DNA of 64,000 bases from an uncultured Oscillibacter sp. GTDB lineage: Bacteria > Bacillota > Clostridia > Oscillospirales > Oscillospiraceae. The translations under genes were made by a program, and so were the position numbers. Shown one piece after another: positions 21,180 to 25,901 of this stretch. The DNA lies in contig CAMBKF010000005.1 of NCBI GenBank assembly GCA_945868085.1, positions 5,507-69,506 on the forward strand. Direction: 5' to 3'. Positions within the stretch are counted from its first letter, which is position 1. Every line of letters begins with the position of its first letter. The notes under the pieces are model-generated. The model was not told the DNA's origin and searched no databases. It was given only the letters and a program-made list of their open reading frames with translations.

Positions 21180-21248
21180 TTATTACGGACTCGCTGTCGG
21201 GGGCGGCCTGCCAGGGGGCAGACGCTTGTGACCCATTCAAAGCGGCTT
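21180..21248 (-). promoter_or_regulatory. Probable L21 leader (structured 5' UTR)
   Basis: GC-rich structured leader ending GCGAGTC between the promoter and rplU. Confidence 0.45.
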
Positions 21249-21252
21249 ATAT

Positions 21253-21281
21253 AGTTTAACAGACTTTAGGAAGCCTGTCAA
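21253..21281 (-). promoter_or_regulatory. Sigma-A promoter of rplU-prp-rpmA
   Basis: TTGACA-N17-TAAACT on the minus strand. Confidence 0.75.
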
Positions 21282-21291
21282 CTGATTTGGG

Positions 21292-21306
21292 GAAGTTTTT
21301 CGGCTT
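21292..21306 (+). repeat. Left target-site duplication (15 bp)
   Basis: GAAGTTTTTCGGCTT, identical to 25421-25435. Confidence 0.92.
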
Positions 21307-21372
21307 TGTTGATTTACACTCTTATTGCAAAGTTCTTTCGAACTAAAAATTAACGAAAAGAGGTATTTCAAC

Positions 21373-21612
21373 ATGAAAATCAAAGTCTGTGGTAAGGCGC
21401 ACCTGGAGGGTGTAGCGAAGAAAACCGGTCGGCCCTACAACTTCAATCAGATTCACTACCTCGGCAAGGCCCGTGGTGTCATCGGCGAAGCGGCCCTGAC
21501 CATCGCCCTGGATCCCGACATCTATCCTATCGAAATGATCGAAGTCGGCAAGGAGTACAACGTTGACTTCGACAATCGTGGCTACGTCTTCGACTTCTCC
21601 CCGGCGAAGTGA
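21373..21612 (+). CDS. Putative ssDNA-binding protein (filamentous phage pV-like), 79 aa
   Basis: GVAKKTGRPYNFNQ resembles the pV DNA-binding wing (M13 GVSRQGKPYSLNEQ); RBS GAGGT; adjacent to origin and rep. Confidence 0.65.
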   Translation: MKIKVCGKAHLEGVAKKTGRPYNFNQIHYLGKARGVIGEAALTIALDPDIYPIEMIEVGKEYNVDFDNRGYVFDFSPAK

Positions 21613-21659
21613 TGGACAAGCCAACTTTCCCATTCCCATTTCCGCGTGTCCCTCCATAG

Positions 21660-21713
21660 CCATAGGGCGGCGCAGCCGCCCTATGGGGCAGGGGGTCAGT
21701 ATTACCCCCCTGC
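21660..21713 (+). other. Rolling-circle double-strand origin: two hairpins, the second with CAGTATTAC in its loop
   Basis: CCATAGGGCGGC-GCA-GCCGCCCTATGG then GCAGGGGG-TCAGTATTAC-CCCCCTGC; nonamer at 21697-21705. Confidence 0.8.
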
Positions 21714-21770
21714 AACTTCTGTGAATCTGTGATTCTTTGACAATGATTTGTCAATCTTTGGAGGTATTTT

Positions 21771-22175
21771 ATGCCACGCTCCCGGAAATGGCTTATCACC
21801 ATCAATAACCCCATTGAGCATGATTTTGACCATGCCCGTATTAAGGCCGCTGTACTTGACTTCCCATCCCTCGTCTACTGGTGTATGTGCGATGAACAGG
21901 GCGATGAATGCGAAACGCTTCATACCCATGTGTATGTTGTTACTCGTGAGGCTACAAGCCACACGCAAATTGACGCTCGTTTCCCCTCGTTCCACCGCGA
22001 CATTGCCCGTGGCAAGTCCTCGGAAAACCGTGCCTACGTCCTCAAGGACGGCGAGAAGTTCAACAAGCAGTCGGACGGCTCCTACTCCTACAAGGACACC
22101 GGCGGCCACCTCCATGAAGGTATCAACTTTTCTTGCCAAAAAGGACATGAAAAAAGGTCGCAAGGTTTGGTCTAA
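21771..22175 (+). pseudogene. rep: CRESS-type HUH rolling-circle Rep, endonuclease domain only (truncated near 22130)
   Basis: Motif I WLITINNP, motif II LHTHVYV, motif III ENRAYVLK; RBS GGAGGT; no helicase domain follows. Confidence 0.82.
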
Positions 22176-22629
22176 CTTCGGCATTACCGGTGCTTATAAA
22201 TGTGAAAAATCCGACTTCGGCAAATACATGATGTCCGATGGCCGTCTTATCATAGATGAAGCTGGCTTGGAATACGATAATCGTAAAATGGCTATGACCA
22301 ACGATGAAATTTATTTCTTCAAATATCATCGTCATTACCAACTGGACGTCGATTTCTTTTCCCAGGGTTTGGACGTTGATATAAAAATTCGTAAGCTTGC
22401 CCGTCATATCTATCTGATTAAGCCCTCTTTGCTCCCGTTCTTTATCAAGAGAAAAGAAATTGGACGTAGAGTAGGTATCAATGATATGACTAAAGAAATA
22501 TGTGATGAATATTTCTTTGTCCCGTTTCTTACTGGTGGTACTAAATTAATATTCTGCCCTCCCCTCTGGAAACTCTTTAATACCCTGGCCCGGAAACCTC
22601 TTCCGGAAAAACACTGGGAAACATGGTGA
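22114..22629 (+). pseudogene. Zot/pI-like morphogenesis ATPase, N-terminally truncated
   Basis: STFLA (Walker A tail), VWSNF, LIIDEAG (Walker B), HRHYQLDVDFFSQ..DIKIRKL; GxxGxGK and TM segment missing. Confidence 0.75.
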
Positions 22630-22702
22630 AGCCCCCGCCGCCTGGCTGGGGCTTTTCCTCTGCCCATAAAAAGCGGAGGATATATGAATATACCCCCCGC
22701 TC
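22629..22702. terminator. Paired terminators between convergent element modules
   Basis: AAGCCCC..GGGGCTTTT and AGCGGAGGATATA..TATACCCCCCGCT hairpins. Confidence 0.55.
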
Positions 22703-22734
22703 TAATTTGCGCTGTTTTTACCCCCGGTAAAAAG

Positions 22735-22935
22735 TTATCCTACGATTTCGTACCCATTGCGTACAAGCCATGCCCGCGCCTGGTGTTCCTGGGCAAAAGT
22801 CCGGCTCTTGCGCTTTTGCCTGTCCCGCCCGGTGATGGCCTGGCCGCTGGCCGCCTGTATCTGATACCGGACTTTATCGTGCTTGATAACGCAGTTATAA
22901 TAGACTGCCTGGCCCTGGCCGTTGATTGCTTTCAT
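22735..22935 (-). CDS. Hypothetical protein (66 aa), element cargo
   Basis: RBS GAGGTG before ATG; co-oriented with the SprT gene. Confidence 0.65.
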   Translation of the reverse strand: MKAINGQGQAVYYNCVIKHDKVRYQIQAASGQAITGRDRQKRKSRTFAQEHQARAWLVRNGYEIVG

Positions 22936-22981
22936 TCGCCCACCTCTTTCGTTCTTTCTCCCCGTCCAGCCGATAGGGCAG

Positions 22982-23002
22982 CTTTTGAATCTACACTTTC
23001 AA
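22982..23002 (+). repeat. 21-bp internal direct repeat, copy 1
   Basis: CTTTTGAATCTACACTTTCAA, identical to 24318-24338. Confidence 0.85.
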
Positions 23003-23181
23003 TTTGTCTCTTTGCACCGTACACGCACGGTGATACTCTCCACATTGGGGTGTGTGAATTGATACGCCTCTATCCATTTTGCAATGTCCTTGAGCGGCAT
23101 TGCCTGGTAGTGCTGAGTTTTGTTGTCTATGCCCGGAAAATAGCACCGGATGCTCATTTGGTATTCTTTCGCCTGTTTCAT
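22999..23181 (-). CDS. Hypothetical protein (60 aa), element cargo
   Basis: ATGA overlap with the SprT stop, RBS GGAGGT; MKQAKEYQMSIRCYFPG.. Confidence 0.65.
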   Translation of the reverse strand: MKQAKEYQMSIRCYFPGIDNKTQHYQAMPLKDIAKWIEAYQFTHPNVESITVRVRCKETN

Positions 23182-23837
23182 TCGGCCACCTCCATTTTCT
23201 CCATGCAGTCCCCACAAATGAGGTTGACCGCCTTGGTGGCCCGGACACTGTTCTTGCAGCACGGACAGATATATTTCCGTGTGCTGCTGCGCTTCGGCGG
23301 CTGTACGCTCCCGCCTGGCTGTGTGCCGCTGTTCCCGGCCTTGCCGCCGCTGCTCGGTGGTGGTGTCCATCCGCCGCCCCGGTTCATTTGGATTTCCGTC
23401 CAGCCCTGCGCAATGATGTAGTCTATAAGTGCTTCGCTCGGTTCCGTCAGCGTCCATCCGTATGTTGGATGATGGGAAATCACCAGGCCCCGCCGCTCTG
23501 CTTCCTCTTTGAATTTCTTGTTGTGGTAGCTGCCGCCCCGGCTGCAATCCTGCACCCCGTGAGCGAGATTGTAGAGGTGTACGGCCTCATGCGTGATGGT
23601 GGCCACCACTTCCTCTATTGGCCTTTGCAGCGTCTCCGCTCCTATGTTCAGTTCATGCCGCTGCTCCCCCTTGCGCTTCCATATCTTGGCCACTGTAACG
23701 TGTCCATAGGCCCGTGGGGTGCTCTGTATGGTGATAATTGGTTCTTCCAGCTCCCCGCCAAACCAATCCGCATTGATTGCCCGGAAAATCTTCTCCAGGT
23801 AGCCCGCTGTCCTGCTGGTCTTGATAGTCTCTTTCAT
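23178..23837 (-). CDS. SprT-like zinc metalloprotease with C-terminal zinc ribbon
   Basis: IN..WFGGEL, HEAVH, YHNKKFK..A, YICPCC..LICGDC; RBS AAGGAG. Confidence 0.82.
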   Translation of the reverse strand: MKETIKTSRTAGYLEKIFRAINADWFGGELEEPIITIQSTPRAYGHVTVAKIWKRKGEQRHELNIGAETLQRPIEEVVATITHEAVHLYNLAHGVQDCSRGGSYHNKKFKEEAERRGLVISHHPTYGWTLTEPSEALIDYIIAQGWTEIQMNRGGGWTPPPSSGGKAGNSGTQPGGSVQPPKRSSTRKYICPCCKNSVRATKAVNLICGDCMEKMEVAE

Positions 23838-23899
23838 GTTCTGTTCTCCTTTACCCCGCTAAAGCGGATTTTGTCTTTAGATTTGAACCCTGAGCCCCT

Positions 23900-24056
23900 A
23901 TGTCGGATTTGACTTTTTACCTCCTTTGCTATAATTTTTAGGGTGATGGGCGTAAACCGAAGGGAAAATCTTCCCCCGCGATTTTGCCTTTGAGTTTTCG
24001 CCCGTCGCCCATTAAGAAAATTTTTGCAAAGGAGGTAAAAAGTCATATTCCGACAT
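23900..24056. other. Long imperfect hairpin (about 70-bp arms) in the element's non-coding region
   Basis: ATGTCGGA..TGACTTTTTACCTCCTTTGC.. pairs with ..GCAAAGGAGGTAAAAAGTCA..TCCGACAT. Confidence 0.8.
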
Positions 24057-24317
24057 TGGTCGTTAGACCAATACCTCGGGTGGAACCGTATATTAAGTTT
24101 TTGCCGTCCCCCGCAAGGCAAAAAGTTAATATGCGAAAGTCCACCCATCCCAGCGCAGCAGCGCTGTGCCTGTTCCCGTCCCGCCGCAGCGATAACCCTC
24201 GTCCCTCGTCTCCGCAGCAGCGGACAACAGGCACTTGCGCTATGCGGAAAAGTATGGTATCATGGCAAAAACAAACGCCAAGGCAGAAATGCCCCGGCGT
24301 TTGCTGCATTTTATGGC

Positions 24318-24338
24318 CTTTTGAATCTACACTTTCAA
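24318..24338 (+). repeat. 21-bp internal direct repeat, copy 2, abutting the transposase RBS
   Basis: CTTTTGAATCTACACTTTCAA followed by AGGAAAACAGCC-ATG. Confidence 0.85.
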
Positions 24339-24350
24339 AGGAAAACAGCC

Positions 24351-25379
24351 ATGAAGAAATACCGCCGTATAGACTGGAATGACCGCTTGCTCATTGAAAA
24401 GCTCTATAATCACGGTCAAAACTGCTCCAGCATAGCGCATGTTCTCGGTTTCTCTCCCTCCTCCATCTACCGTGAAATAAAGCATGGCCTGTACCCGCAC
24501 CTGGGCGCAGAAACCACCCGGCGACCATTTCATTACTCTGCGCAAATCGCCCAGGACCACGCCGATTACCACGCCACCTCAAAAGGCACACAAATAAAGC
24601 TGGGCAACAACTACGGCTTCGCCGCAGATGTTGCCCAGCAAGTCAAGCATGGCATCTCTATTGATGTAATTGTAAACCAAAAGAAGCAGGCCAAACAGTG
24701 GACAGTCAGCACTACCACTCTATATCGCTACATAGATCGCGGCTATATCCCCGGCGTTACCAATAAGCACCTCCCGGAAAAGCCCCGCCGCAAGCATCGC
24801 AAGCCCGGCATGGTAAAGGCCACTCGGGCACCGAAAGGGCTCCCCATAGACCGCCGCCCGGCCCACATAAACCGCCGCTTGTCCTTTGGCCATTGGGAAA
24901 TGGACAGTGTCATAGGCACCGCAGAAGGCAAGCGGCAATCCCTCCTTGTCCTCACCGAACGCCTTACCCGTTTTGAAATCATCTTCAGAGCCAGCAGCAA
25001 GACCGCAGCAGCCACCACTAAGGCCCTAGATAGAATCATTCCTCAATTCCCGCAATGTACATTCCAAACGATAACCGTGGACAATGGCAGCGAATTCCAG
25101 GACTGTCATGGTATGGAGCATGATAAGCAAGGCAACCAGCGTCTGACCGTCTATTACTGCCATCCTTATTCCTCCTGTGAGCGTGGCAGCAATGAGCGCA
25201 ATAACCGAATCATTCGCCGTTACTTCCCCAAAGGCAGGAGCATGGCGAAAGTCACACAAAAGGACTGCGACAAAGCCGCAGCCCTCATAAACGCCATGCC
25301 CCGAAAAATCCTCAATTACCAATCCGCTGCTGACCTATTTAATCGAGAAATCGAAAACTTGCTCAAAAATCAAAAGTGA
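24351..25379 (+). CDS. IS30-family DDE transposase
   Basis: N-terminal HTH (IA..LG..PSSIYREIK), TTLYRYI, I..RP, GHWEMDSVIG, TITVDNGSEF, YYCHPYSSCERGSNE..N..IRR..PKG. Confidence 0.95.
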   Translation: MKKYRRIDWNDRLLIEKLYNHGQNCSSIAHVLGFSPSSIYREIKHGLYPHLGAETTRRPFHYSAQIAQDHADYHATSKGTQIKLGNNYGFAADVAQQVKHGISIDVIVNQKKQAKQWTVSTTTLYRYIDRGYIPGVTNKHLPEKPRRKHRKPGMVKATRAPKGLPIDRRPAHINRRLSFGHWEMDSVIGTAEGKRQSLLVLTERLTRFEIIFRASSKTAAATTKALDRIIPQFPQCTFQTITVDNGSEFQDCHGMEHDKQGNQRLTVYYCHPYSSCERGSNERNNRIIRRYFPKGRSMAKVTQKDCDKAAALINAMPRKILNYQSAADLFNREIENLLKNQK

Positions 25380-25420
25380 TATTCTTACGAAACTTTTTGC
25401 AATGGACTTGACAATCTACA

Positions 25421-25435
25421 GAAGTTTTTCGGCTT
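25421..25435 (+). repeat. Right target-site duplication (15 bp)
   Basis: GAAGTTTTTCGGCTT; overlaps the luxS stop codon. Confidence 0.92.
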
Positions 25436-25901
25436 ATTTTGTGGGATATCTGAGCTTTTCCTCCGTCCAGGAGGCGATGAGGTCGCGATACCAGGCGCAG
25501 CAGGCCCGGCCCTCCTCCACACTGAGGTTTTTATAGTTGCCGCACTCGGCGGCGGAGCAGCCGGGCATGGGGCCGCTATACTCGGCGGCCCGGGCGAAAA
25601 CCGACTGCAGGAGGGCGATGGACTGGGAAAGAGTCAGCTTGTCCCCGTCAAAGAGGAAGTAAAAGCCCGTCTGACAGCCCATGGGGCCGAAGTAGATCAC
25701 CGCGTCCCGGCTCTCGGAATTGCGCAGGAAGGTGGCGATGAGATGCTCCACGGAGTGCATCTGACTGTTGGACAGCAGGTCTCCGGTGTTGGGCTTTTTG
25801 AACCGCAGGTCAAGGGTCACCACGTTCCCGTCCCGACGGGAGAGGTACAGGCCGGGCACCAGCACATTGTGGTCCACGGTAAAGCTGGCGATACGTTCCA
25901 T
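25434..25901 (-). CDS. luxS: S-ribosylhomocysteine lyase
   Basis: IASFTVDH, DLRF..PN, HSVEH, GPMGCQTGFY, CGNY. Confidence 0.96.
   Translation of the reverse strand: MERIASFTVDHNVLVPGLYLSRRDGNVVTLDLRFKKPNTGDLLSNSQMHSVEHLIATFLRNSESRDAVIYFGPMGCQTGFYFLFDGDKLTLSQSIALLQSVFARAAEYSGPMPGCSAAECGNYKNLSVEEGRACCAWYRDLIASWTEEKLRYPTK

Follow-up and report, generated by a model that had tools for sequence, protein, structure and literature searches.

A promoter split between the ends of an inovirus-like remnant and its predicted assembly by an IS30-type transposase

Introduction

How does a prophage that is moved by a transposase keep its replication genes quiet while integrated, and what would turn them on? 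The question is raised by a 4.1-kb element at positions 21307-25420 of a 64,000-nucleotide stretch of DNA (the window) from an uncultured Oscillibacter sp. (assembly GCA_945868085.1, contig CAMBKF010000005.1, positions 5,507 to 69,506 of the forward strand). It is the sole copy in the window's genome (G000, 1.96 Mb). A first-pass annotation had proposed that excision of this element joins an outward-facing TTGACA at its right end to a TACACT at its left end, and that the resulting promoter drives replication genes in a prophage that needs no repressor.

The inverted repeats of insertion sequence IS30 are joined in circles with a spacer of 2 nucleotides (nt). Promoters formed at such junctions (Pjunc) are established for IS30 and, at a mandatory 17 bp, for IS2 (PMC9333248, PMC3219604; here and below, comparisons refer to the accessible sections of the cited papers). 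Because IS30 itself makes 2-bp target duplications (PMC9333248) and the duplication at this locus is 15 bp, the 2-nt spacer could not be assumed and needed testing.

IS30-mobilised phages have been published (PMC12823448, PMC5883640, PMC13432834, PMC11792537), with 1,780 gut candidates in PMC12823448. The accessible text of that paper gives no account of how they stay quiet; "promoter" is absent from the main texts of PMC12823448 and PMC5883640, and "inovir", "inverted repeat" and "target site duplication" from the main text of the former. A cultured IS30-carrying phage was called lytic since no integrase or CI-like repressor was found (PMC13432834). Transposase-bearing inoviruses have been noted (PMC6668415, PMC6813254), and a preprint (10.64898/2026.07.08.737213) reports, in the part available, an element enriched in virions that has 15-bp repeats, part of an IS30 and an inovirus-family gene, unexplained there. 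The literature searched, which left out most subscription journals and supplements, contained no description of phage early genes driven by a junction promoter or of IS30 elements that target promoters.

From the evidence below we consider it likely that the transposase of this element would join its ends with a 2-nt spacer, so creating a promoter for the genes of a single-stranded-DNA-binding protein (SSB) and a replication protein (Rep), and that integration splits this promoter. The split promoter is probably general in the family, where it is well supported, and by extension likely in the clade of the window.

Results

The ends of the element carry the two halves of a predicted promoter

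A perfect 15-bp direct repeat flanks the element (two matches in the window; none in 100 shuffles) and fixes both tips independently. Just inside them lie imperfect terminal inverted repeats of about 25 bp, left (IRL) and right (IRR), which are complementary at 17 of 25 positions. Their agreement is 7/8 in the outer part and 8/8 in the inner part; at positions 9-17, the sites of the hexamers, it is only 2/9.

On recheck the hexamers, their distances of 7 and 8 bp from the tips and the GAAGTT that occupies the -35 position in the integrated state were exactly as first annotated. The arithmetic also stood: with a 2-nt spacer between tips placed by the 15-bp repeat, 7+2+8 gives 17 bp and TTGACA-17-TACACT. 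This match is exact and is not due to chance. On a weight matrix that is our own approximation of the promoter consensus, the left -10 scored 14.0 bits in the joined form and 0.4 in the integrated form, and the neighbouring host promoter scored 14.4. Consensus scoring revealed no better promoter ahead of SSB or Rep. In three RNA runs only 7-8% of the words of the element were present.

The geometry is kept in integrated relatives

Twenty integrated elements were scored with both ends, 17 with repeats of their own and three hand-paired across contigs (two share one left end). The first 36 bp of each left end were searched for the best -10 on the assumption of a 2-nt spacer, and in 17 of the 20 it lay at the 17-bp spacing. 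Boxes above 4 bits occurred at spacing 17 in 18/20, and none of the other spacings between 9 and 35 had one in more than 2/20; in L499 the best box is at 19, with a good one at 17 too. Integrated scores were 7.9 bits or lower throughout. The first-pass annotation had tied its proposal to junctions of 16-18 bp and to hexamers conserved in related elements, and at the sequence level neither expectation was contradicted.

Nine different -10 hexamers were found, with A2 and T6 kept in all. The tip offsets vary by clade (5+10, 6+9, 7+8) and their sum is constant at 15. The boundary of the repeat is ambiguous by 1-4 bp in several elements, which leaves this sum unchanged if the repeat is 15 bp. In the transposase tree, which held no published IScream or ISfinder reference sequences, the clade of the window comprised 14 rows with support of 100/100; all seven of its members scored with both ends have the 7+8 geometry, and none of the seven has a TGn extension.

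The hexamers could instead be inherited transposase-binding sequence, or the relic of an IS30 Pjunc, with no bearing on phage replication. The right-end TTGAC is nearly constant clade-wide (141 of 193 loci have such a box), as expected of a binding site, and because inverted repeats are inherited, their conservation is not independent. However, the -10 sits exactly where the two repeats stop matching, it varies only at positions where promoters tolerate change, and from clade to clade a shift in its offset is balanced by one in the offset of the -35. Together with the lack of a better promoter ahead of SSB or Rep in the consensus scoring, this makes a relic unlikely.

Joined ends in relatives have a 2-nt spacer

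Among 27 hand-picked loci with transposases 36-42% identical to that of the window, 25 were called as joined ends by a caller that required a -10 at 15-19 bp. All 25 have a 2-nt spacer, represented by 13 dinucleotides, and the spacing is 17 bp in 23 and 18 bp in two. A scan free of any offset requirement, with left ends taken from integrated copies only, was run over 147 loci and gave 15 distinct hits. The 11 hits with at most 5 mismatches all lie at 17 or 18; the remainder, with 6 mismatches each, comprise one at 17 and three at 14, 22 and 47, which we read as chance. In two groups, 15-bp duplications around integrated copies go together with 2-nt junctions (L520/L487, L521/L489 with L464/L466; L498 with L483). 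Six GenBank genomes were inspected by eye, and four of them have a good -10 at 17 bp (nd12, nd4, PQ006184, PQ006121). In the circular inoviruses PQ006184 and PQ006121, TTGCAA-17-TAAATT lies between inverted repeats behind the transposase. Real junctions of sister clades show the 2-nt spacer, and no junction was found for the clade of the window itself in the data sets listed below. A plain inverted-repeat search for junctions was dropped, as it was swamped by terminator hairpins.

Several observations weigh against the proposed switch. The observed junctions all come from relatives with 34-42% transposase identity, mostly tailed phages. In PQ006184 and PQ006121 the Rep gene adjoins the transposase rather than following the junction, and an SSB-like gene (by eye) comes second. 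The spacing is 16 bp in Faecalibacterium phage Lagaffe, the -10 of Dulem virus 34 is weak, L122 has 15 bp, and L385 is best at 10, with a weak box at 18 by eye. The -35 box was used to select right ends, the kin compared are not independent, and the weight matrix is the approximation described above. A host site at 21226 (9.1 bits), the best of those pointing inward, could leak into the element. For the window's own clade, no junction was present in the Logan contigs of eight runs, contigs being a form of data that drops rare forms, nor in five genomes searched. A pattern scan of viral sequences gave 104 stretches with none near a family gene, and zero with a tighter pattern; a metagenome scan, uninformative on this point, yielded no clade junction among the matches listed (at least 120 stretches). 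In the same eight runs, contigs linked the element to the host DNA on either side at similar depth.

These points bear on a different route, in which the clade circularises otherwise, for instance by recombination between the 15-bp duplications with a resulting 30-bp spacing. No promoter would then form, and SSB and Rep would be expressed by read-through from the host or from an unseen promoter. Consistent with this route are the duplication of 15 rather than 2 bp, the unobserved own-clade junction and the weak inward host site. However, the sister groups with 15-bp duplications make 2-nt junctions, no junction with a spacing of 30 occurred in the 147 loci, and the 7+8 geometry is kept in every clade member scored with both ends. 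We regard this route as very improbable, and a 2-nt join as the likely event in this clade too.

Clade members lie 25-27 bp behind predicted host promoters

Each of 17 relative elements has its own, different flanking repeat, and in genome G304 one element is present twice, each copy flanked by a different perfect repeat. An att core was therefore ruled out, and the 15-bp repeat is a target duplication. In L114, L122, L370, L385, L394, L400, L417, L425 and L498 the flanking repeat runs 2-8 bp past 15, because adjoining host bases equal the bases of the element tip. Possible explanations are a duplication of variable length (13-17 bp) and tips that are copied from the target.

To the left of the element, a host promoter points away from it toward what we take to be the gene for ribosomal protein L21 (Table 1). 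The best away-pointing promoter lies 25-27 bp from the left tip in 9/9 left flanks of the clade, representing eight distinct host promoters, compared with a mean of 0.5 and a maximum of 3 in 200 shuffles and with 0/11 right flanks; the 24-27 bin used for this count was set after inspection of the data. The left flanks in this pattern are window 21253-21306 and L113-L117, L361, L494, L511, L525 and L527. Both sites in G304 are at 26 bp (by eye), and another element, in run X11, agrees with 25 bp in the three letters visible there. Among more distant elements, 7/14 fall in the 24-27 bin, five lie at 35-37 bp and two have no clear promoter. The IS30-type transposase thus appears, on the pattern of these flanks, to choose sites 25-27 bp behind away-pointing host -35 boxes.

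The distance of 35-37 bp in the five distant elements is about one helical turn further. In some tailed groups (L452, L455, L456, L447, L467, L475) a host -35 was seen by eye about 26-27 bp from the right, transposase-side tip, in the opposite orientation. On the right of the window's element, the duplication overlaps the stop codon of luxS (25421-25436), so that luxS transcription runs head-on toward the transposase gene. In several genomes of the same genus (G001, G002, G004, G021, G022, G024), different inserts or inversions of 2-6 kb occupy the interval from the L21 promoter to luxS, which is possibly a hotspot of rearrangement.

The window holds a deletion remnant of an inovirus-like phage

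From left to right the element encodes an RstB-like protein, a hairpin origin, the Rep N-terminus, the Zot C-terminus, two small reverse open reading frames (ORFs), an SprT-like gene and an outward-reading IS30-type transposase (Table 1). The first-pass annotation had placed SSB, origin and Rep, rather than the transposase, behind the left end. That order stands; the Rep gene is truncated and abuts a Zot fragment. This truncation, the 15-bp rather than 2-bp duplication and the insertion 25 bp behind a host promoter were all absent from it.

Table 1. Positions in the window of the predicted features of the element and its flanks.
Feature	Position	Strand	Remarks
Host sigma70/sigmaA-type promoter	21253..21281	-	points away from element; -35 starts 25 bp from left tip
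Left target-site duplication, 15 bp	21292..21306	.	direct repeat; 15-bp duplications of relatives differ
Left inverted repeat (IRL)	21307..21331	+	17/25 positions complementary to IRR
-10 half, TACACT	21315..21320	+	8 bp in from 21307; no TGn extension
Predicted SSB, CTX RstB-like	21373..21612	+	first gene past junction; Pfam PF07459 E 0.0019, below cutoff
Two hairpins, predicted rolling-circle origin	21660..21713	+	second hairpin with AGTATTAC loop; fold z -8.1
Truncated HUH Rep (Viral_Rep)	21771..22175	+	PF02407 E 2e-8; first 121 aa match relatives, helicase half lost
Zot/pI-type morphogenesis ATPase, C-terminal fragment	22144..22629	+	PF05707; N-terminus and all putative coat genes deleted
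Two small ORFs, 66 and 60 aa	22735..23181	-	no known family
TTGAA-N8-TTCAA palindrome, copy 1	22985..23002	.	possible operator, recombination or packaging site
SprT-like metalloprotease gene	23178..23837	-	PF10263 E 4e-5, just under cutoff
32-bp inverted repeat pair with promoter-like site	23907..24048	.	possible regulatory RNA
Predicted internal transposase promoter	24235..24263	+	17-bp spacing, TGn present; consensus match only
TTGAA-N8-TTCAA palindrome, copy 2	24321..24338	.	31 bp upstream of transposase start
IS30-type DDE transposase, intact, outward-reading	24351..25379	+	HTH_38 and rve
Right inverted repeat (IRR)	25396..25420	-	17/25 positions complementary to IRL
-35 half, TTGACA, facing outwards	25408..25413	+	7 bp to tip at 25420
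Right target-site duplication, 15 bp	25421..25435	.	overlaps stop codon of convergent host luxS

Close relatives, from the same genus and family, are 8.7-10.4 kb long with the same gene order and carry a full Rep with a helicase-like half (341 aa in L113), a full Zot and a block in which small hydrophobic ORFs stand alongside large ones. The Zot fragment of the window is 94-96% identical to four relatives. In these four it lies 5.2-6.0 kb past the Rep N-terminus whereas in the window the two abut, and the window copy is therefore a deletion remnant. The small hydrophobic ORFs of L113 (by eye), candidates for the small single-helix major and minor coat proteins of inoviruses, had no Pfam or PHROG match, and their region is deleted in the window. 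Further profile matches were obtained for the L113 transposase (phrog_4646, E 2e-100) and for a relative's SSB, 92% identical to that of the window (phrog_929, E 3e-8); no integrase was matched among the L113 ORFs in the Pfam and PHROG profile searches. The inovirus traits present are the pI/Zot ATPase (full in L113, C-terminal part in the window), a rolling-circle Rep, an RstB-like SSB and a hairpin origin, the AGTATTAC loop being found in 7/8 elements examined. Gene content thus identifies the element as a deletion remnant of inovirus-like phages integrated by an IS30-type transposase. This copy is likely unable to replicate or form virions alone and could at most circularise.

The remnant is widespread, with at least half of its words in 16 of the 23 sequencing runs listed, from nine studies; nine of these 16 runs could themselves be the data it was assembled from. 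Named records of the clade are from Oscillospiraceae, Intestinimonas, Flavonifractor, Oscillibacter and other Clostridiales. Viral contigs scanned with SSB alone and with Rep alone gave no match.

The full-length relative L114 has a second origin-like AGTATTAC stem-loop. A small palindrome with a TTGACA arm (21737-21755) stands directly before the Rep start, is kept in L112-L115 and L085, and may be a binding site for Rep or transposase. Related SSB-Rep elements at L086, L088, L089, L094 and L096 had no matching IS30 transposase in the stretch fetched, and the left-end motif was mostly absent from them; in L088, a TTTACAAT box precedes SSB by a similar distance.

Control may lie one step earlier, at the transposase

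The first-pass annotation saw no repressor gene in this copy. Its term "repressor-free" is unproven, because a conserved palindrome sits at the transposase start. TTGAA-N8-TTCAA has only two copies in the 1.96 Mb of G000, both inside the element, and in eight elements (window, L001, L002, L112-L115, L436) a copy precedes the transposase start by 31-32 bp. A host SOS-type box was unsupported as an explanation, there being no copy in G000 outside the element. Clade members have 1-7 copies, some within genes, some at their borders and some ahead of the transposase or behind it. The palindrome is repeated in the window, L001, L002, L085, L112-L115, L376, L394, L406 and L415. It may serve as an operator, a recombination site or a packaging site.

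Other candidates for control were noted. The two small ORFs had no family in a Pfam search or the ESM Atlas. The 32-bp inverted repeat has arms 78 bp apart, between the SprT-like gene and the transposase, with a promoter-like site in one arm; it possibly resembles a regulatory RNA or antisense module, and Rfam gave nothing above the gathering score for 23907-24048. In tailed relatives the first gene past the junction encodes a small helix-turn-helix (HTH) protein resembling the transposase N-terminus (tested with a hidden Markov model for L004 only). This gene, of 66-91 aa, is at L004:4456-4731 and also in L018, L024, L025, L027, L441, L443, L446, L464, L470, L471 and L533. It probably corresponds to the "truncated IS30" of the IScream phages, and instead of being debris it may regulate the ends by feedback.

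The junction promoter could be real and yet form a second layer, with a DNA-binding regulator of the element or host, or an antisense RNA, repressing the transposase so that lysogeny is repressor-controlled one step earlier. The element-restricted palindrome near the transposase start, the small ORFs without a family, the HTH gene of the tailed relatives and the convergence of luxS transcription on the transposase all fit such a layer. In contrast, no HTH family was found among the 17 ORFs of L113 apart from the transposase, and no copy of the palindrome is at the junction promoter. The palindrome also occurs inside genes and up to seven times per element, which suits a structural or recombination role equally well. 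We hold a regulator acting on the transposase to be possible, at clearly less than even chances.

Discussion

The results favor a switch in which the state of the DNA sets the state of the replication genes. In the sequence of events that we propose, weak expression from the predicted internal promoter would supply the transposase, which would join the ends of the element into a circle, with the same 2-nt spacer in this clade as in its relatives. The join would build TTGACA-17-TACACT, which is predicted to switch on SSB and Rep and presumably to act as the main promoter of an SSB-Rep-coat operon. In intact members rolling-circle replication and expression of the virion genes would follow. Re-insertion behind a host promoter would split the phage promoter again, leaving the integrated phage largely silent, and the decision point would shift to transposase expression. 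An insertion-sequence junction promoter has thus likely been redirected to phage genes.

We advance more tentatively, and as somewhat short of an even bet, the wider proposal that a class of gut phages, filamentous and tailed, uses the IS30 junction promoter as its lysogeny switch. The only early promoter would be one that exists in the circle, the phage would dock behind a host RNA-polymerase site facing away from it, no repressor would be involved, and induction would be transposition itself.

A split early promoter offers a concrete and cheaply testable answer to the quiescence of these prophages, since strains with Lagaffe and with the Blautia hansenii phage are already at hand. On this view spontaneous induction should be low, at a level set by the transposase. 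A further result is an IS30-type enzyme that probably selects promoters as targets at a set distance; such a choice of site would leave host genes unharmed and shield the replication genes from strong host transcription. The copy in the window is merely a remnant, and the significance of the findings rests with the family.

Excision-dependent promoters are known from Tn4451 (tnpX) and from circles of the IS110 family, and in Tn916 transcription reads through attP; in each, expression needs the circular form. Those systems use other recombinases, and the genes turned on serve recombination or transfer rather than a phage replication module. A close mechanistic parallel is the Pjunc of IS30, IS2 and IS911 (PMC9333248, PMC3219604), where, as here, an outward -35 on the right and a -10 on the left are joined by circularisation at 17 bp through a DDE transposase of the copy-out/paste-in type. 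In those insertion sequences, however, the junction drives the transposase, whereas here SSB and Rep lie behind it and the transposase, at the opposite end, has a predicted promoter of its own. The 2-bp duplication of IS30 likewise differs from the 15 bp found here and in relatives.

The IScream phages (PMC12823448) and Lagaffe (PMC5883640) are, like the present family, prophages of gut Clostridia with circular forms, in which an outward IS30 transposase replaces the integrase. Lagaffe has direct-repeat flanks, a transposase 38% identical and a junction-like promoter at 16 bp. As described in the accessible text, both are tailed double-stranded DNA phages whose opposite end carries another, truncated IS30-like gene, whereas the present element is of filamentous type with SSB first. 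Vespertiliovirus (PMC6668415), PQ006184 and PQ006121 share with it the combination of a Zot/pI ATPase and an IS30-family transposase. The Rep of PQ006184 and PQ006121 is related (44-46%) but is encoded beside the transposase, and vespertilioviruses are described, in the part of PMC6668415 available, as lacking Rep.

The choice of target finds its counterpart in the promoter targeting of TnGBS, ISLre2 and ISKra4 (PMC3942029), which works alike; in the present clade 9/9 left ends lie at 25-27 bp and none of 11 right ends does. Those elements use a Mutator-family transposase, a distance of 15-17 bp and spacers of 6-10 bp, whereas here the enzyme is of IS30 type, the distance is 25-27 bp and the spacer, in sister clades, is 2 nt.

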